Source: a bacterium
GTDB lineage: Bacteria; JADJOY01
Direction of reading: 5' to 3'
Assembly (NCBI GenBank): GCA_046331705.1
Contig: JAXLQJ010000043.1
Span: 1 to 64,000, forward strand
Length of the DNA stretch: 64,000 nt
The notes under the pieces were generated by a model. That model was not told the origin of the DNA. It saw only the letters and a list, made by a program, of their open reading frames with translations, and searched no databases. Position 1 is the first letter of the stretch, and each line of letters opens with the position of its first letter. The translations under genes and the position numbers were made by a program. Positions 6,954 to 14,569 of this stretch are shown one piece after another.

Positions 6954-7084
6954 CGCGCTGCGGATCATACGCAAGACCCGCGCCACGGGTGAAGGCCGCT
7001 CGTGGAGCATCGGACGATCAGGGGCGGAGACGAACCTCGCTCTCGGAGGGCCGAGCGTCTACGCGGCCGGGGCTCTACGGAGCG

Positions 7085-7121
7085 AAAAAAAATCGCGAAC
7101 GGCCCGCCTGACGGCGGGCCG
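7085..7121 (-). other. GC-rich hairpin (9-bp stem, 4-nt loop) followed by a T8 run downstream of the NACHT-CLec gene; DGR target hairpin and/or terminator
   Basis: CGGCCCGCC-TGAC-GGCGGGCCG at 7100-7121; A8 at 7085-7092 (T8 on the coding strand), 7 nt from the stem. Confidence 0.6.
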
Positions 7122-7134
7122 AGAGGTCAGGGAA

Positions 7135-7156
7135 CCAGAGAGCCAGAGACCAGAGA
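7135..7156 (-). repeat. Three near-tandem TCTCTGG heptamers downstream of the stop codon
   Basis: CCAGAGA on + at 7135-7141, 7143-7149 and 7150-7156. Confidence 0.8.
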
Positions 7157-7356
7157 GGCCAGCGTCCAGCCCATCATGGGGGAGAAACAATCACGCGAAA
7201 ACCGATGATGACGAGGCGGTTGCCGGGATCGTAGTCGTAGCGGGCCGCGGACCGGGCGCTGCGTAGATCGAAGTAGTACGCACCGCCACGAACCACACGG
7301 CCGGAGTCGGCGCCAGCATCGAGCTTCTCTCGCCCGCCATCGGCGCGGTACGGGTA
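7150..7356 (-). repeat. Putative DGR variable repeat (VR1) plus conserved 3' flank
   Basis: 207-bp ungapped direct repeat of 10087-10293; mismatches almost all at codon positions 1-2 of NNC/NNT codons. Confidence 0.8.
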
Positions 7357-10017
7357 CTCGGCCGCTACGGAGCGAGTCCATTCCCACACGTTCCCGCTCA
7401 GCTCCTCGACCCCGTCCGCGCTGGCACCGTTCGAGAAGCAACCCACAGCGCTGGGGCGGCCGATGCGCGACTCGGACGTGTTTGCCCGTTCCGAAGCGAA
7501 CTCGTCTCCCCACGGATAGCGGCGCTCGGGTAACGGGTTCGCCGATCCATCAGCGAGGGTCTTCCCACCGCGCGCGGCCTTCTCCCACTCGGCTTCCGAG
7601 GGGAGCGTCACGCTCTGCTCCGGGCGAATCTTGCGAGAGGCTCGCCAGCGTTCGGTGAGCCAACGTGTGAACGCCAGCGCCTCGTACCAGCTCACCCCGA
7701 CCATCGGTTGGTTGGGCAGTCCGTAGATGGCAGGGAGAACGCATGGGCCGGCCGTCGGCTCCTCCTCGAAGCGACTCACGATGGTTCCCGACTTCCACAC
7801 GCCCGCGGCTTTCGCTTCCGGCCAGAACCGTTCTTCGGCGTACCCGCCCGCGGAAACGAACGCTGCGAACTGGCCACACGTGACCGGCCACTTGCCGATC
7901 CGGAAACCGGGTACATCCACCTCGTGGACCGGCTTCTCGGGCATCCACGGTGCCTGATCGGTACTCCCCATCCGGAACGGGCCCGCAGGCACCACGCAGA
8001 AGGCCAGCTCATCGACGGAGGTCACGGCCTCGCGCGGATCGCCGAGCTGTGCCAGCACGCGCCCCGCCTCCGCCCGCTCGACTGCCGGCAGCGGGCATGC
8101 GAGTGCCTCGACCAAGCGTCCGATCAGGCGCTCGAGGTAGGCGCCGCCGCCGTCCGGTTCCTCATGATCGGCCTCGATCGTCTTGCGCTCGGCCACCACC
8201 GCCATTCGCCCCGACCACACCAGCGCCCTCCACTCGGCAGCCGCTGTGGGCGCGCGTGTGGGGCAGAGGTGATACGCGAGGTCGAGAAGCTCGTGGGTCC
8301 GGCGCAGGTTGAAAAAGAGCTCCTCGCCTCCCAACGCCACGGCCAACGACCAGAAATCCCCCTCCTCGGCGTGCTTGCGAATCGGTCGCTCCGGGTGGCG
8401 TTGCGAGACCAGGAACGCGCCGGCGAGGTACTCCTGGAACGTGCGGTGTGGAAATCCGTATGCGCTCGGCTTGCCCGGAGCCCCGCCGCGCCCGATCACG
8501 AGCCCCGCACACGTGTCCACGTAATCCAAGAAATGCTCGGCAGCGGCGGCGCTGCCGAGATGGTGGCGATCGAGGAGGTCGATGGCCGTCCCCCGCGCCA
8601 GGTCGCCGGCGCCACTACCGTCTCCTTGCGTGCGGTTGCTGCCGGCGTCGCTGCCCAGGCGGTGAGTCTCGTACGCGAGCCGTTCCATCGCCTCACGGAG
8701 CTTCTTCGTCTCGTGAAAGAAGGGCTGGATCGATTCGTGAATCCCAGCACTTCCCGCACGGTGCCGCTGCCAGCGCTGGATCAGCACCTGGACCGCGAGG
8801 TCGTAGACCTTCACCCGCTCCTTCGGTAGCCCGACGTCGCGCTGGTGGAGCAAGGCCATCGTGGTCAGCAACATCGGGTTCGACGCGAGCTCGCGCAGAT
8901 CGGCACCCGTCGCCGCGGTCGCGAGCTCCGCGGCACGATCCTTGGCTTTGCGTTCGTCGAAGCGCCCGATCACACGCTGCGCCTCGTACCAACCGCTCAC
9001 GAAGGCGCGGATCTTCTCCTCGTCGAACGGCGCCAGCGTGAAAGCGGTGAAGCCCCGAAGCTCGCCTTTGCCCTCGTACGAGCGCGTTCGGCAGGTCACC
9101 ACCACTCGTTTCACCTGCCACGCTCGAAGGGCGGCGCTCACGGTCTCGCGAACCCGCTCTCGCGCAGCCTCCGGCACCTCGTCGAGGCCGTCGAATCCCA
9201 ACAGTACCGAGCCTGCTTGCAGCCGCTCCCTGAGCGTGTCCGCAAACGACTTGGCTCCCAGCGATTCGAGGTCGTCGGCGAGCTGATCTTCGAGGGCGTG
9301 GCAAAGGGCTTGGGCGCGCTTGGCGTCACCGAGACGGTCGATGTCGAGCGCGACGAGCCGCGGCACCAGATCGCGCAGCGCCACCAGGATCGGAAGCAGG
9401 TTCCCCAGGTCCATGCGGGGTGCCGCTCCCTTGCCCGGTTTGAGCCCCAAGAGCGTCCCGCACTGCCGCGCCACGACGTTGCGCAGAAACGCGCTCTTCC
9501 CGGACCCCGCGTCTCCCAGGAGCACCAATCGCTCTTGATCGCGGAAGGCCTCGATGGCGCGAACCGGAACCTGATCTCCACCTCCAGGTCGCCCTGCGAT
9601 CAGGTGCCGATCGGGCTCTGCGTTGCGCTCGGCCTTGGTCAGCTCGCGGAACGTAGTGGTGTCCAAGTCGATGTATACGTCCTCGAGGGTCGGTTCCTTC
9701 TCGCAGCTCTCGTCCCCGCCGAGCGGCGCCAGCGGCAACAACATGCAAGCGTGGCGCAGCCTGGTCAGGTAGAGCGCTTGCGCCTCGCCGGGTCGAAGCT
9801 CGTTGCCAGACTCTGCCGCTCCAGAGCCGTGGTTGTGAACGTGAACGCTCTTGTCGACCATCGCGCCCGAGCCGATCACGTCGCCGCGAACCTCGGCTTC
9901 GGCTCCCACCGCCAACCCGTGTTGCGCCACCGCGGTCGCGCCATCTCCCTGCGCGCTCGCGGCCCCCGTGCCCACGACCCGCGCCACGAAGCGCTTCACA
10001 CCGTCACGAAGCCCCAT
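7174..10017 (-). CDS. NLR-like protein: N-terminal G/A/V-rich motif, NACHT NTPase, FGE-sulfatase (C-type lectin fold) domain
   Basis: Walker A LLGDAGSGKS, Walker B FDGLDEV, VVTCR, NPMLLT, FPHRTFQEYLA; C-terminal LPSEAEWEKAARG, GNVWEWT, RGGAY...IGFRV. Confidence 0.9.
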   Translation of the reverse strand: MGLRDGVKRFVARVVGTGAASAQGDGATAVAQHGLAVGAEAEVRGDVIGSGAMVDKSVHVHNHGSGAAESGNELRPGEAQALYLTRLRHACMLLPLAPLGGDESCEKEPTLEDVYIDLDTTTFRELTKAERNAEPDRHLIAGRPGGGDQVPVRAIEAFRDQERLVLLGDAGSGKSAFLRNVVARQCGTLLGLKPGKGAAPRMDLGNLLPILVALRDLVPRLVALDIDRLGDAKRAQALCHALEDQLADDLESLGAKSFADTLRERLQAGSVLLGFDGLDEVPEAARERVRETVSAALRAWQVKRVVVTCRTRSYEGKGELRGFTAFTLAPFDEEKIRAFVSGWYEAQRVIGRFDERKAKDRAAELATAATGADLRELASNPMLLTTMALLHQRDVGLPKERVKVYDLAVQVLIQRWQRHRAGSAGIHESIQPFFHETKKLREAMERLAYETHRLGSDAGSNRTQGDGSGAGDLARGTAIDLLDRHHLGSAAAAEHFLDYVDTCAGLVIGRGGAPGKPSAYGFPHRTFQEYLAGAFLVSQRHPERPIRKHAEEGDFWSLAVALGGEELFFNLRRTHELLDLAYHLCPTRAPTAAAEWRALVWSGRMAVVAERKTIEADHEEPDGGGAYLERLIGRLVEALACPLPAVERAEAGRVLAQLGDPREAVTSVDELAFCVVPAGPFRMGSTDQAPWMPEKPVHEVDVPGFRIGKWPVTCGQFAAFVSAGGYAEERFWPEAKAAGVWKSGTIVSRFEEEPTAGPCVLPAIYGLPNQPMVGVSWYEALAFTRWLTERWRASRKIRPEQSVTLPSEAEWEKAARGGKTLADGSANPLPERRYPWGDEFASERANTSESRIGRPSAVGCFSNGASADGVEELSGNVWEWTRSVAAEYPYRADGGREKLDAGADSGRVVRGGAYYFDLRSARSAARYDYDPGNRLVIIGFRVIVSPP

Positions 10018-10086
10018 GGTGACCTCTCACAGCACGGCCTGCGGACCGGCACGAAGCAAAATGGCGGCAAACGAGCGAGCGAAAAG

Positions 10087-10293
10087 CCAGAGGGGCCAGC
10101 GTCCAGCCCATCATGGGGGAGAAACAATCACGCGAAAACCGATGCTGTCGATGCGGTAGTCGGGATTGAGGTCGAGGCGGGCCGCGGACCGGGCGTAGCG
10201 AGGATCGTAGAAGTACGCACCGCCACGAACCACACGGCGGGACTCGGCGCCAGCATCGAGCTTCTCTCGCTCGTCATCGGCGCGGTACGGGTA
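10087..10293 (-). repeat. Putative DGR variable repeat (VR2) plus conserved 3' flank
   Basis: Repeat of 7150-7356 at offset 2937 bp; identity continues 24 bp past the TGA with one mismatch. Confidence 0.8.
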
Positions 10294-13200
10294 GCTCTCT
10301 GTCTGTGATCGAGTCCACTCCCAGACGTTGCCGATCATCTCTTCCACGCCGTACGGGCTTACGCCACCCGGGAAACAGCCGACGGCGCTCGGGCGACCGA
10401 TTCCCGTCTCGTCGATGTTGGCCCGACTCGAATCGAACGCATCGCCCCACGGGTACGCCGGGTATGCGTTCGGTTGACCGTTCGGGAGCACGAGCCCACC
10501 ACGTGCGGCCTTCTCCCACTCGGCCTCGGACGGCAACATCACGGTCTGATCGCGTCGAATCCGGCTCGAGTCTCGCCAGCGCTCCGTCAGCCAGCGTGTG
10601 AACGCCAGCGCCTCGTACCAGCTCACTCCAGCCACAGGCTGGTTCGGTGCGGTGAACGCTACTGGCAGCTCGAGCGGTCCCGTTGTTGGCTCGTCCTCGT
10701 ACCGTCCCTTGATCTTCCCGGCCTTCCAAACGCCGTTGCGCTGGGCTTCGGTCCACCAGCGTTCGTCCGTGTAACCGCCCGAGTCCACGAATGCTGCGTA
10801 TTGAGCACCGGTCACTGGCCACCTCGCGATCGAGAAGCCCGCGAGCGTGACCTCATGCGCGGGGCGCTCATCCGACCACGCGCGGCCGTCGCCGTCAGCG
10901 CTCCCCATCCTGAACGGTCCGGCCGGCACATCGCAGAAGGCCATGTGATCGACCGCGATCACCTCCAGCCGTGGGTCTCCAAGCTGCGCCAGCACCGCAC
11001 CGGCCTCAGCCCGCTCGCGAGCTGTGAGCGGGCTCTGGCGCAGCAACTCGACGAGCCGATGGCGCGTGCGCTCCAGGAGATCCGCCCCGAGCGCGCCCTC
11101 GGCGGCACGGCGCACGCCGATCTCCAGCAACACCTCGCCGGCGAACCACGCCCGTCGCCACGCGAGCGCATCGATTCCGGTGCTCGCCGGGCATAGCTCG
11201 CCCACGAGCGCGAGCGGCTTGTCCGTGTCGCCGGCGACGTGAACCAGCCGGCCCACCGCGAGCAAGACCACCTCGCGCCAGCGGTCGAGCTCTCGCGTGT
11301 GGCCGGCCGCCGCCCGCCCGAAATCGCCCAGTGTCGAGAGGTGTGCGCCCGCCAGATATTCCTGAAACGTCCGGTGCGGGAATGCGTAAACGCCTTGGCT
11401 GCGCTCCAGCAGGAGGCCGGCGCGGTGTTTGATGGAGTCGATGACCGCGTCTGCCCAGCCCTTGTCGCGTCGCGGATGAAGAGCGGCGAGCGCCACTTCG
11501 AGCGCGTGCTCGCCCACGTCGGCGACGCCGTCGTCGCTCGGCCCCGCGCTCGCCCCGTGGACCTCGAATGCCAGTCGCCAGAGTGCGCGCTTGAAGTCCA
11601 TGTCATTGACGTTCACGTCGTTCATGAGGCGCCGCAGAGAGGGCCCTTCGCCATCGCGTTGCTTGAGCTGCTCCCAGCGCCAGAGCAGGAGATCCACGGT
11701 CTCCTCGTAGAGCAGCGCCCGCGCATCCGGTAGCCGCCCGCGATGGGTGTGAACCAGCGCCATCACGGTGAGCAGCAGCGGGCTGGGCGCCAGGCGCCAG
11801 AGATCGGGGCGGCGAATGGCGGTGCTCAGCCGCTGCGCGAGAGAGGCGGCCTCGATCTCCCGCACCGTGCCGACTGCCGCCAGCTCGGCGTACCAGGCGC
11901 GAATGAAACGATCGATCCGCTCGTCGTCGAACGGTGCGATCTCGAAGGACTCGAAGCCGGCGAGACGCCAGCGCGGGTCTTGGTACGAGAGGGTCCGGCA
12001 GGTGACGACCACGCGGCTCGCGGGGTAGCGCTCCGCGAACGCGCGGACCGACTCGACGATGACCTTGCGCTGCCGCTCGCCGCTGACCTCGTCGAGGCCG
12101 TCGAAGAGCAGGATTCCGTGGCCCGCCTGCGCCGCGGCTTGAATCGGAGCGAGCGCGCTCGAAAGGCTCTGCTCGGCGAGTCGCGCCGCCAGGAAGTCCC
12201 AAATCACTTTGGGATTGCCCGAGGTGATGGACTCCGGAAGGGCCGCCGCCACGTCGCGCAGCACGATGGGGATGGGAATGAGATCGGGTGCTAGCGGGGT
12301 CGTCGCTGACGACGCCTTCTTGCGCCGCGGTTCATCCGGTGACGGCGCCTGCCCCGAGGCCAGGCTCATCGCGACGTATCCCATCAGCGTGGACTTGCCC
12401 GATCCGGGCCCACCGAGAAGCACCACACGTGGATTCCGCGCGAGGGCCGCGAGCGCCGAGAGCGGCGGCGCACCGTGTTCCGGCCCGGCAAGCTCGTCCG
12501 GGGTCGCGGTCCGTGACCGCCGGTTCTTACGCTTCGACGGCGCCAGCTCGTCGCGCGAGGTCGTGGCGAGATCGACGTAGACCGAAGCCAGCCGGAGCGG
12601 CTTGTCCGCCGAAGTGGCGTCGCTCGCGCCGAGATCGATGCCGCGCAGCGGCAGCCCCGCGTGCTGCCGCGCGATCCAAACGCGATACGCCGCAATCGCA
12701 TCGTCGGCAGCCCGTGTGGCTTCATCCGAAGGCGGGTGATTGACGTGTACACCGCCGTGGACTTGGGCGCTGCCGCCGATCACCACGGCGCCCGGTCCAG
12801 CCGCGATCGCGCCTTTGCCCTGGGCGATGACGCCGGAGCCTTTCACCACGGCGTGGTAGGTGGTGGACGGTGCGCTCGAGCTCTGCGGCTCCCGAAGGCG
12901 CGTGAGCGATGCGCGAACCTCGGCGGTGAGCGACCGAGACGCGTCGAAGAGCGCCGTCAGCTCGGTCCGCAGGAGTGTTCCGTGGTCGGCGTCGCTCGGG
13001 TCGTCCTTCCACAGCGCGACGGCGGCGCGAAATCGCTGCGAGGCGGCGCGGTCACGAACGCACGCGTCCCAGAGCCCTGCGATGGATTCGGGAACCCCGG
13101 TGCGCACGGGAGGTTTGCCCGCGAGATTCACAATCCAAGGCGAGAGCGTGCCGAAGAGCGCCGTCGCCAGGTCGCTCGTGGTGCTGAACGGCGGCCCGAG

Positions 13201-13707
13201 CGGGGGCACGGACAGCGGAGCGGGCGCGCTGGGCGCGGCCGCGCTTCGCGGCGCAGTAGCCGCTGTCTTCTTGCCGCGTGCAGCAGGTCGCTTGCGCAGC
13301 GCGCCGATCAAGTGCTCGAACGCGTGCGATTCGTCCGCCGGCGGCACGAAGTCCACGCGGGTGAGCATCTCGAGGCGTGGTGGGACGTCGCAGGGGGCGA
13401 TCCGGATGGGGACGATGGCGCGCTGGCGAGCGGCGGGATCGCGCGTTTGAACGAGCAGGTTCTCGAACTCCGTCCAGCCGCTCTTCAGATAGTCGGGCGA
13501 GAGGACGACCACCGTGTGGCGGCTGTCCACCGCGGCGCGCTCCATCTCGGTCGCCAAGGGCGCGCCAGCCACGAAGTCGCGAGAGTCGATGCAGACCTTC
13601 AGCCTCGCGCCTTCGAGCGCGGGCAGGAGCTTGCCGCAAACCCAATCCGCGTCGCGGCTGCTGTAGCTCAGGAAGACGTCGTAGCGATGGCCTTTTCGCG
13701 ATGCCAT
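10111..13707 (-). CDS. NLR-like protein: TIR, helical (Bell-like) domain, G/A/V-rich motif, NACHT, FGE-sulfatase/CLec
   Basis: [11 protein letters not shown]...DFVAG...[14 protein letters not shown]; Walker A [47 protein letters not shown]; start ATG 13707 or GTG 13716. Confidence 0.9.
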   Translation of the reverse strand: [1198 protein letters not shown]

Positions 13708-13903
13708 TCGATTCACCTTGCTACGGGGAGTGCGCTGCGCGCGTGCGAGATTAACCCGTATTCGCGGCCCGAAGTCGGCGTGTCACGGACTTCGCTCGCG
13801 GATGCGGCGGCGGTAGGAACGTGTTTCGATGCGGAGCGCACCCGGAGTCGCGCGGCCGAATGCGAGCGGCGCCGCGTTGCGCGTGGGAGTGTGGAGGGTG
13901 CCG

Positions 13904-14569
13904 ATGGCGGAACACGGTGCGGGCTCGCGTCGTGCGATCAGCGCGGTCGAGGTGGTGCTGGGGGCGGTGGTGGTGATCGGGCACAACGTGTTCGGTGCGC
14001 TTCCGAACGAGGTTCCGACCCTGTGCGCGGCGGCGCTGGTGTCGGTGCGGCTACGGGGTGGCGGTTGGGTTGCGCTCGGGTTCGCGCGGCCGGGTTCGTG
14101 GCGGAAGGCGATTGCCGTCGCTGCTTTGGCAGCGGCGCTCAGGATCGTGCTCGGCGATCTCGTGATCGATCCGCTCACCCAGCGGTTCTGGCCGCCGGCG
14201 GCGGCACCGGCGATCGCGGACGATCTCGCAGGGAATGCCGGCCAGGCGCTGCTGCTTCTTGGGCTGGTTTGGACGTTCGCTGCCTTCGGGGAAGAGATCG
14301 GATATCGCGGTTATCTGCTGAACCGCGCGGCCCATGTGTTTGGCGGTTCGATCCGGGCTTCTTGGGCGGCCGTGGTGGCGAGCGCGGTGCTCTTCGGTTT
14401 CGGGCACTTCTACAAGGGACCGTCGGGGATCGTGGATTCGAGTGTGGCGGGGCTCATCCTCGGTGGGGCGTACGTGCTGGCGGGACGGAATCTGTGGGTA
14501 CCGGTTCTCGCCCACGGATTCATCGACACGGTGGGCGTGGTGCTGGGGTATTTCGGCCTCGACGGTTGA
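13904..14569 (+). CDS. CPBP family (Abi/CAAX) intramembrane glutamic endopeptidase
   Basis: EEIGYRGY, FGFGH and HGFID motifs; hydrophobic TM segments; GGAGGG RBS before ATG 13904. Confidence 0.85.
   Translation: MAEHGAGSRRAISAVEVVLGAVVVIGHNVFGALPNEVPTLCAAALVSVRLRGGGWVALGFARPGSWRKAIAVAALAAALRIVLGDLVIDPLTQRFWPPAAAPAIADDLAGNAGQALLLLGLVWTFAAFGEEIGYRGYLLNRAAHVFGGSIRASWAAVVASAVLFGFGHFYKGPSGIVDSSVAGLILGGAYVLAGRNLWVPVLAHGFIDTVGVVLGYFGLDG

Follow-up and report, generated by a model that had tools for sequence, protein, structure and literature searches.

A two-gene NLR locus in which a BASS-like motif may join DGR-type variable lectin tips to a TIR domain

We analyzed a 64,000-nucleotide stretch of DNA from an uncultured environmental bacterium (positions 1 to 64,000 of contig JAXLQJ010000043.1, GenBank assembly GCA_046331705.1; hereafter the window), in which two adjacent minus-strand genes at 7174-13716 encode NOD-like receptor (NLR) proteins. 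Both carry a motif rich in glycine, alanine and valine, and both end in lectin-fold sensors with variable tips of the kind associated with diversity-generating retroelements (DGRs). The window is contig C43 of the source genome, G000, which spans 8.17 Mb at ~70% GC and holds 90,799 open reading frames (ORFs). Its phylum comprises six species genomes, G000 included, and one of the other five, G005, comes from a sister species and is a 90% complete assembly. We call the two proteins the short NLR (P0001) and the long NLR (P0002); their orthologs in G005 are P0003 and P0074, respectively, and residues of the long NLR are counted from a GTG at 13716.

Two paralogous NLRs of unequal length

Both proteins match the Pfam families NACHT, NPHP3_N and nSTAND, and in both a NACHT domain with a Walker A site lies between N- and C-terminal variable domains, the arrangement that defines a bacterial NLR. 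They are colinear paralogs, 43% identical over 965 alignment columns that run from residue 10 of the short protein and residue 287 of the long one to both C-termini. The long NLR (10111-13716, minus strand) is built, in order, of a TIR domain, a linker, a five-helix domain, the G/A/V motif, NACHT, an arm and a terminal FGE-sulfatase/C-type-lectin (FGE/CLec) fold; the short NLR (7174-10017, minus strand; 947 aa) consists of motif, NACHT, arm and FGE/CLec. Applied to the translated ORFs, Pfam assigns TIR_2, NACHT and FGE-sulfatase to the first and NACHT and FGE-sulfatase only to the second. The NACHT NTPase cores lie at 11857-12441 in the long NLR (NACHT and NPHP3_N matches) and at 8980-9543 in the short one (NACHT and AAA_16), and the FGE-sulfatase/C-type-lectin-fold sensors at 10126-10932 (Pfam FGE-sulfatase, E = 7.7e-51) and 7189-7998 (7.7e-49), respectively, all on the minus strand. 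Counted from the GTG, the long NLR measures 1201 aa, and its G005 ortholog has the same architecture. The true start is probably the ATG at 13707, which stands behind AAGGTGA and gives a protein of 1198 aa; a database twin of the long NLR, P0006, has exactly this length.

The TIR domain of the long NLR (residues 12-140; 13297-13683, minus strand) matches TIR_2 at 4.5e-23 (residues 14-137) and TIR at 8.4e-13. PADLOC reports PDC-S66 and ThsB-like matches for it, and its relatives in the PDB include TLR, MyD88, AbTIR and Roq1. An earlier sequence-only reading of this DNA had noted a glutamate at the expected catalytic position of the domain, within SGWTEFE. The string is present, running from S79 to E85, and E85, its second glutamate, aligns with the conserved glutamate of SCWCQYE in the TIR domain of TLR15, a position that we take to be that of the NADase catalytic glutamate of TIR domains.

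The same reading had quoted two similar segments, one at the head of the short NLR and one just before NACHT in the long NLR, the latter with a helical domain ahead of it. Mapping of residues to bases places both where they were claimed, at residues 22-63 of the short protein (9829-9954) and residues 285-327 of the long one (12736-12864), with the helical stretch at about residues 181-284 preceding the second. It had further described the 947-aa protein as devoid of an N-terminal effector. The stop-to-stop frame of the short NLR begins just three codons ahead of its ATG, and a GAGAGG Shine-Dalgarno sequence lies 5 nt upstream of that codon, which leaves no space for such a domain.

A Bell-like domain inside the long NLR

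A phmmer search with residues 170-340 of the long NLR against 1.84e9 representative proteins (cut-off E <= 1e-3) returned 68 matches, most of them stand-alone proteins of ~145-165 aa that aligned nearly end to end. A loose form of the motif pattern is present in 59 of the 68, and 38 are stand-alone proteins of 125-195 aa with the motif near the C-terminus (P0064, which resembles a protein of the source genome itself, was left out of this count). In most of these stand-alone relatives, M-D/E-P and then a hydrophobic helix form the start. They contain a P-[DE]-D-x-D...L-R-x-Q-L block that matches the pattern seen in the long NLR, and have C-termini of the form [ST]-Y-x-A-x-[LV]-x-G-S-G-A-I-A-Q-G-x-G-A-V-A-A-G... 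The helical domain of the long NLR itself (residues 181-284; 12865-13176, minus strand) retains D-L-A-T-A-L-F, although it sits behind a TIR domain and a linker.

Profile searches tie these relatives to the Pfam family HetE-N (PF20701). A profile of alignment A2, which holds 33 family members, found 146 proteins, and among the 120 matches listed, 90 carry HetE-N. A hidden Markov model (HMM) built solely from the helical parts of PF20701-annotated proteins found the helical parts of 33 of the 38 stand-alone relatives at E <= 1e-3. When the motif was removed from 106 outside members, the resulting helix-only HMM matched three of the 90,799 ORFs of the source genome: a Bell-like ORF on contig C12 (2.7e-11), an MshEN-fused protein (5.8e-6) and the long NLR (2.3e-5). 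A helix-only HMM from 71 PF20701-annotated proteins matched the C12 ORF (E = 0.0016) in that genome and not the long NLR. Three of the 33 members of A2 match HetE-N weakly; membership of the long NLR in PF20701 is transitive only.

An AlphaFold2 (AF2) model made from A2 contains five helices, with block-mean pLDDT values of 73-95. Foldseek found nothing in the PDB for this model at E <= 1e-3, and VIA-align wide returned generic helical bundles only (best Z 5.7), with a bacterial death-like domain at Z 3.6 among the ties. No HeLo, MLKL or Bab match appeared in these fold searches or in a profile search of the PDB, which gave weak helical matches only; the searches were too uninformative to speak against such a fold.

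Bell proteins, as described, are ~120-140 aa long. A five-helix Bell domain of ~100 aa opens with a hydrophobic helix, the residue at position 2-3 is acidic, and a bacterial amyloid signaling sequence (BASS) forms the C-terminus; the domain was first discovered in RHIM-annotated proteins (Dyrka et al. 2020, bioRxiv 10.1101/2020.01.06.895854). The language-model neighbors of P0010 include ~145-aa actinobacterial clusters with both HetE-N (22% of members) and RHIM (19%). A 'HetE' N-terminal domain is listed as an effector in the TPR-GreA/B-C-PIN system (Kaur et al. 2021); under the name Agp/Bab, this system was found in 2024 to use amyloid signaling (bioRxiv 10.1101/2024.11.07.622273). These two associations make it very probable that Pfam's HetE-N and the Bell-type domain are one and the same. 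Sequence comparison supports homology of the helical domain and motif of the long NLR to this stand-alone Bell-type family, the link to the long NLR itself being remote. The helical domain had been proposed to be Bell- or HeLo-like. A Bell-type ancestry is partly supported by the helix-only HMM and the five predicted helices, for a domain that is internal and draws no Pfam HetE-N match of its own; a HeLo-like fold was not recovered.

Elsewhere in the source genome, at C56:37719-38588 (L034:1483-2316, minus strand), a 277-aa protein combines an N-terminal MshEN domain (1.1e-15) with a C-terminal Bell-like helical domain that has no motif. Each of the six phylum genomes holds one copy, which suggests that the Bell-type fold also serves a conserved, apparently non-immune protein.

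One motif in two adjacent genes

The motif of the long NLR (residues 285-331; 12724-12864, minus strand) forms about five G-x-G-A/V-hydrophobic-A heptads directly before the NACHT module, and a motif-only HMM built from 136 outside sequences finds it at E = 2e-11. It is BASS-like in its composition (rich in G, A, V and Q, with I), in its length of ~35-40 aa and in its placement, a comparison made with BASS as described. A diverged copy occupies the N-terminus of the short NLR (residues 11-63; 9829-9987, minus strand), colinear with that of the long one. Because the paralogy of the two proteins is colinear through the motifs, the copies are related by descent.

We scored motif pairs by alignment against composition-preserving shuffles, 2000 for each pair. 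The orthologous pair in the sister species, P0003 against P0074, gives z = 10.3, and the motif of the long NLR against the N-terminus of P0003 gives z = 11.4, with 0 of 2000 shuffles reaching the score in either case. The A2 profile finds the N-terminus of P0003 in G005 at E = 2.4e-8 and detects no stand-alone Bell-motif gene in that 90% complete assembly, where the long NLR is the only motif-bearing partner seen for the short one. The window pair shows the sharing of a motif between adjacent genes that marks Bell/BASS systems, with the long-NLR copy internal rather than C-terminal. In a wider comparison, the neighboring effector side was the best partner for five of 10 NLR-side motifs, against 1.25 expected, over loci that are few and not independent. 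A complex prediction with three copies of the long-NLR motif and the short-NLR N-terminus (score 0.01, mark 0.32) has no bearing either way.

Between the two species the long-NLR motif is 91% identical, compared with 88% for the TIR domain, 75% for the Bell-like domain, 75% for the linker and 84% for the whole protein. These figures bear on an alternative account of the G/A/V stretch, in which a GC-rich genome has produced flexible, low-complexity linker sequence that serves no particular function. Ala/Gly-rich segments are indeed common at ~70% GC, and the outside motif HMM meets chance matches at E = 0.002 in unrelated ORFs. Set against this are the constancy of the motif while its flanks drift, the recurrence of its near-invariant positions in proteins of Chloroflexota, candidate division KSB1, cable bacteria and Nitrospira, and its constant placement relative to Bell-type domains and NACHT. 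We regard a plain linker as very improbable.

Bell-type proteins beside motif-bearing NLRs in other loci

The source genome holds a second cluster, at C12:1848-8830 (L008, L010, L032), with the canonical layout of a Bell-like gene and two NLRs. A Bell-like motif ORF of ~151 aa overlaps the start of a motif-NACHT-FGE gene, P0004, whose motif is preceded by a short helical leader. The next gene encodes a further NLR, P0005. It begins with a hydrophobic domain of another kind, followed by the motif, NACHT and an FGE domain that continues in another frame near residue ~920, owing either to a frameshift or to an assembly error. The three C12 motifs have a common locus-specific variant, and the outside motif-only HMM misses all three at E <= 10. 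The tail of P0064, a close database homolog of the C12 Bell ORF, scores z = 8.0 and 8.7 against the two C12 NLRs and z = 0.1 against P0003.

Loci outside the phylum were found with the pattern G[AV]IAQGKGA, which was taken from the 8-row alignment A3 and covers part of the family; metagenome contigs were mostly too short for context. A scan of species genomes gave nine loci, mostly from Anaerolineae or other Chloroflexota and from candidate division KSB1. All nine long motif-bearing ORFs in these loci are NACHT proteins; eight also have an FGE domain, and no FGE match was found in the ninth. In every case the motif precedes the Walker A site, at 47-342 residues from the start of the frame. Small helical-plus-motif ORFs adjoin in four of the nine loci (L038, L039, L040 and L041). 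These neighborhoods support the view that the Bell-type family pairs with motif-bearing NACHT-FGE NLRs in other phyla, as in the Bell/BASS layout.

The database protein P0191 (1005 aa) reads HetE-N-motif-NACHT-FGE, and P0194 reads P0005-like domain-motif-NACHT-FGE; from these and similar proteins, an effector domain, the motif and NACHT in one chain emerge as a recurrent design. At L041:1694-5020, an NLR has the order DUF4062-motif-NACHT-FGE. P0193 (776 aa), with SEFIR/TIR_2, motif and a caspase-like CHAT domain, indicates that the motif is also used between two effector-type domains without an NTPase. The full combination of TIR, Bell-like domain, motif, NACHT and FGE was met only in P0006 and P0074, both from this genus (1.84e9 representatives searched by phmmer; 8000 candidates scored in a search for longer proteins).

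An N-terminal domain with two long hydrophobic helices is common to P0005 (residues 1-140; L010:1096-1515) and P0194 (residues 1-150), in both ahead of the motif. Pfam does not recognize this domain, which may be a further effector that acts on membranes.

Variable lectin tips and their presumed retroelement

DGR-type variable regions (VRs) lie at 10141-10215 in the long NLR, between invariant flanks at 10114-10140 and 10216-10233, and at 7204-7278 in the short NLR (both minus strand). We aligned four copies, from two genes in two species (G000 and G005). Of 23 variable sites, 22 fall at codon positions 1 or 2 of NNC codons, and the short-NLR region varies at such positions only. The codons between variable sites, together with ~45 nt beyond, are identical in all four copies even at synonymous sites, and the block just upstream of the VR shows ordinary third-position drift.

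Natural samples add to this picture. Half or more of the sampled words of the stretch are contained in 14 DNA runs, and any part of it in 20 runs from 12 studies, which are labeled as activated-sludge, wastewater, sludge, digester, bioreactor or unspecified metagenomes, the first three labels covering most of them; six RNA runs contain 5-12% of the sampled words. We compared metagenome contigs of four runs with the window. Run X2 contains a second contig form, at a depth of 6.5 of 10.9, with 10 differences from the window between 7206 and 7272, and all 10 are variable codon positions of the short-NLR VR. In run X8, a contig has 24 differences within 7176-7391. The long-NLR VR has 0-1 differences in three runs, a figure that may miss variation because contigs drop rare variants. 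Within 7000-10400, Logan contigs tend to break, with many loose ends, around both VRs and around 7566-7606, a conserved FGE segment common to other organisms.

The window holds no reverse transcriptase (RT; RVT_1), and the two RVT_1 genes of the source genome lie on contigs C2 and C10. No template repeat (TR) was found in the G000 assembly by blastn at word size 7 or by a fuzzy search of the invariant VR flanks, and a DNA search of the six phylum genomes returned only the VRs themselves. A 108-nt match on contig C111, 65-67% identical, was considered as a TR and rejected as too weak. The assembly is 95.7% complete, so the TR may be unassembled; alternatively, it may act from elsewhere, and remote DGR targets diversified in trans have been described (Dore et al. 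2024, PNAS, PMC10907252). The proposal that both CLec tips are diversified by a DGR stands on the VR signature in both genes and on natural variation in the short-NLR VR; the TR and RT that it calls for are absent from the locus, and no matching TR appears in the assembly.

At C10:179695-181822, a 478-aa FGE-domain ORF adjoins one of the two G000 reverse transcriptases. The two probably belong to a separate DGR, of which the ORF would be the target, and the surroundings contain no sequence matching the NLR VRs.

Outside the phylum, a complete DGR cassette occurs in a metagenome-assembled genome (MAG) contig of candidate division KSB1 (L041:1694-10637). It comprises two motif-NACHT-FGE targets, a small motif ORF between them, bAvd (3.1e-16), a TR and an RT (2.3e-13). 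Compared with the two VRs, its TR has an adenine at 12 of 12 and at 12 of 13 differing sites, the remaining one being a gap. Beyond the cassette lie an IS200-like transposase fragment and a further motif ORF at 11484-12236. In an Anaerolineales MAG contig (L040:201-5000), an RT stands directly upstream of a motif-NACHT-FGE NLR, beyond which lies a Bell-motif ORF. A TR/VR repeat was looked for in this contig and not found; the contig ends 200 nt before the RT. The complete cassette and the L040 RT indicate that the link between hypermutation and motif wiring, which the sequence-only reading had put forward for the window pair, is real as a class.

Immediate surroundings of the gene pair

A 93-nt intergenic spacer (10018-10110, minus strand) separates the two genes and contains conserved post-stop sequence; the GAGAGG Shine-Dalgarno sequence of the short NLR lies within it at 10023-10028. 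A GC hairpin followed by a T-run at 7095-7107 (minus strand) resembles a terminator and would mark the end of the two-gene unit after the short NLR. Directly upstream of the long NLR and divergent from it, a gene at 13829-14569 (plus strand) encodes an Rce1-like CAAX protease of the CPBP family (Pfam 8.5e-19). CPBP-family proteins are frequently annotated as abortive-infection proteins.

A model for the locus and its alternatives

We lean toward reading the locus as a two-gene anti-invader module of the cell-suicide type, in which paralogous NLRs with DGR-diversified lectin tips are joined by a BASS-like motif, and we think this reading somewhat probable. The tips would be rewritten, now or recently, by a DGR located elsewhere in the genome. 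Binding of a ligand at the lectin tip of the long NLR would cause NACHT oligomerization and bring the motifs, which lie just N-terminal of NACHT, into register; these could then stack into a cross-beta or beta-solenoid-like assembly that clusters the TIR domains into an active NAD-cleaving arrangement and can recruit further motif-bearing copies. TIR domains generally need ordered self-association for NADase activity. The long protein would in this way be a self-contained sensor and executor, and the short protein a sensor-only paralog that passes its signal to the long one by templating its motif, so that a single executor would serve two sensors, the second of them more variable. Two features point in this direction. 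The short NLR has no other output; it most likely feeds into the long NLR. The high conservation of the long-NLR motif, despite the all-in-one nature of the protein, is what one would expect if the motif also received signals in trans or amplified them. We infer amyloid formation, the direction of signaling, cross-talk between the NLRs, the NADase output of the TIR domain and the role in defense.

A more ambitious form of the model, which we regard as possible and hold tentatively, is a two-tier receptor. The effector-less NLR would act as a diversified antigen sensor that nucleates a cross-beta fold, and the TIR-Bell NLR as a shared, self-propagating executor acting by NAD depletion and possibly membrane attack. 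This form is suggested by the polymorphism of the short-NLR VR within one sample, with no variants seen for the long-NLR VR. If it were true, amyloid-signaling modules of one very conserved, unnamed motif family would account for the uncharacterized N-terminal extensions that DGR-targeted NACHT-lectin proteins carry in many phyla.

A number of observations weigh against the favored reading, here and in the two paragraphs that follow. The combination of TR, RT and Avd that would identify a cognate DGR is missing from the locus. Pfam HetE-N does not match the long NLR at E <= 0.1 or at E <= 1, and it matches nothing in the whole source genome at E <= 10. The Bell-like domain of the long NLR is internal, behind the TIR domain, and the phylum has a third, motif-less Bell-like copy C-terminal to an MshEN domain; a free N-terminal membrane-inserting helix is hence unavailable, which argues against a pore-forming role here. 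Finally, the long protein has sensor and effector in one chain and needs no signal in trans.

Other points concern the relationship between the two motifs. Common descent of the paralogs can explain the shared segment, since the colinear identity takes in the motif. In G000 itself the likeness is weak: residues 1-70 of the short NLR against residues 279-340 of the long NLR give z = 3.7, with one 1-residue gap and 6 of 2000 shuffles reaching the score, and the short-NLR motif gives z = 3.0 against a close homolog of the C12 Bell tail. The outside motif-only HMM does not find the short NLR at E <= 10, the A2 profile does not list it in G000, and it ranks its neighbor 4th of 8 as a motif partner. 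The motif is also its fastest-evolving part, with 56% identity to the ortholog and 3 gap columns, against 83% for the whole protein. Two claims of the sequence-only reading are narrowed by these results: the shared pattern is colinear and strong in the sister species and only modest in G000, and conservation of the motif in homologs extends to the long NLR and much less to the short one. All this would suit a segment inherited through NLR duplication without any cross-talk, the short NLR being a decaying or regulatory duplicate that has lost its N-terminal effector, or else signaling elsewhere, for example to the C12 Bell-motif protein. The presence of the gene pair, in identical order, in just two of the six phylum genomes (G000 and G005) would likewise make it dispensable. 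Against such a view, the short gene is intact, has a good ribosome-binding site and is kept beside the long one in the second species with the strong motif score given above; the natural polymorphism of its VR suggests a sensor that is active and under selection; the two changes in its motif region in run X8, at 9895 and 9925, are both at third codon positions; and motif-only sensor NLRs are the normal partner type in this family. We consider the absence of cross-talk unlikely.

The physical nature of the motif is the remaining issue. It might be an ordinary homotypic adaptor, a beta-roll or beta-helix of ~2.5 turns of a YadA-head-like 14-residue repeat, that docks stoichiometrically after NACHT oligomerization and does not propagate in a prion-like manner, with the wiring otherwise as in the favored reading. 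Coupling of sensors to effectors by small effector-associated domains (EADs) has been described (Kaur et al. 2020, eLife, PMC7159879). Weak YadA_head matches occur in the motif of 17 of the 33 family members (best E = 1.5e-3), far below Pfam thresholds, and the 7-residue period of G-x-G-A-hydrophobic-A is regular. Fifteen positions are at least 90% conserved in the 136 sequences, a set gathered and filtered with the motif itself, which inflates the figure; such high conservation across phyla is unlike the variable, pair-specific BASS motifs. The motif is often internal, between an N-terminal domain and NACHT, and in the AF2 monomer model it is a low-confidence coil. Given its invariance and the YadA-head matches, an ordinary beta-roll adaptor fits as well as an amyloid. 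Speaking for the amyloid are the G, A, V, I and Q composition, the ~35-40-aa length and the placement at the C-terminus of Bell-type proteins and the N-terminus of adjacent NLRs, all as in BASS. HET-s-type amyloids are themselves beta-solenoids, so the adaptor and amyloid readings overlap. A purely non-propagating adaptor seems to us a minor contender, and we continue to favor the module with a stacking, BASS-like motif.

Comparison with known systems

Until now, small Bell-type executors and TPR/WD NLRs have been the context of bacterial amyloid signaling. DGR-diversified NACHT-lectin proteins, for their part, have been proposed as 'antigen sensors', with N-terminal parts and outputs that mostly lacked an assignment. 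The locus and its relatives unite the two fields, in that hypermutating sensors carry a wiring motif of Bell/BASS type. They point to a specific output route for DGR-diversified NLRs, one that experiments can address. They may also illustrate, in nature, how one executor NLR could serve another NLR that only senses, and they supply a very conserved motif of ~40 residues that can readily be examined for fibrils and cross-seeding. Among the papers listed in our literature search, which covered main texts, none links DGR-targeted NACHT-lectin proteins to amyloid motifs, and the motif string 'GAIAQG' occurs in no paper searched. The available text of Dore et al. 2024 (PMC10907252) contains 'amyloid' once, as a reference title; the text of the Dyrka et al. 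2020 preprint contains no 'FGE', 'lectin' or 'retroelement'; and a 2026 STAND survey contains no 'amyloid' or 'Bell'.

Plant sensor/helper NLR pairs offer an analogy only: there, too, an output-less sensor NLR works through an adjacent executor NLR, but the partners interact via N-terminal or nucleotide-binding domains, share no strand motif, and are coupled in a manner that is not homologous. In fungal NWD2/HET-S pairs, as recounted by Dyrka et al. 2020, an N-terminal motif of the NLR templates the matching motif of an executor encoded next door; that executor is a separate pore-former with a free N-terminus, whereas the motif-bearing executor here is an NLR with a TIR domain. The EAD systems, as presented by Kaur et al. 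2020 (PMC7159879), place the same small module on a sensor and its adjacent effectors, with adjacent copies most alike; FGS/FGE domains and DGRs accompany these systems as well. An EAD is a folded domain, helical in most cases, whereas the shared element here is a strand motif of ~40 residues, and no EAD Pfam family is among the 25 of 37 families listed for the A2 members.

The Bab/Agp BASS11 antiphage system of E. coli (Ibarlosa et al. 2024, bioRxiv 10.1101/2024.11.07.622273) also unites a Bell-related small helical executor and a large sensor through a common amyloid motif, which was shown experimentally to form fibrils and to mediate abortive infection. As that preprint describes it, the sensor is of TPR-GreA/B-C-PIN type, the motif has another sequence, and there is neither an effector-motif-sensor fusion nor hypermutation. 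The DGR-targeted NACHT/nSTAND-CLec proteins of Dore et al. 2024 (PMC10907252) match the window pair in having duplicated targets, a central STAND NTPase and a C-terminal, VR-bearing CLec domain. Their N-terminal extensions are not tied to amyloid signaling in the available text; here and in L041 these are HetE-N/Bell-like domains and a BASS-like motif. DGR-diversified NACHT-CLec targets, some of them with TIR domains, are thus already in print (Dore et al. 2024; Kaur et al. 2020, PMC7159879).

The Bell/BASS pairs of Dyrka et al. 2020 are a close parallel. There, a small helical domain of Bell type has a short G/Q/V-rich motif behind it, and the motif recurs at the start of the NACHT-NLR encoded next to it; TIR2-BASS effectors and rare Bell-NLR 'all-in-one' proteins are in print there as well. 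In the window, by contrast, the motif lies inside an all-in-one protein, between the Bell-like domain and NACHT and with a TIR domain ahead; the partner is a second NLR, not a small effector; and the sensors are of DGR-type FGE/lectin kind, where those of the preprint are TPR/WD repeats. That text reports Bell as not found outside a few phyla, and here a Bell-like domain occurs in a phylum of six species genomes. Seen beside all of these systems, the locus is a new arrangement of known parts: a TIR, Bell-like and motif block fused to an NLR, the pairing of this protein with a sensor-only NLR, and a demonstrable DGR signature on both.

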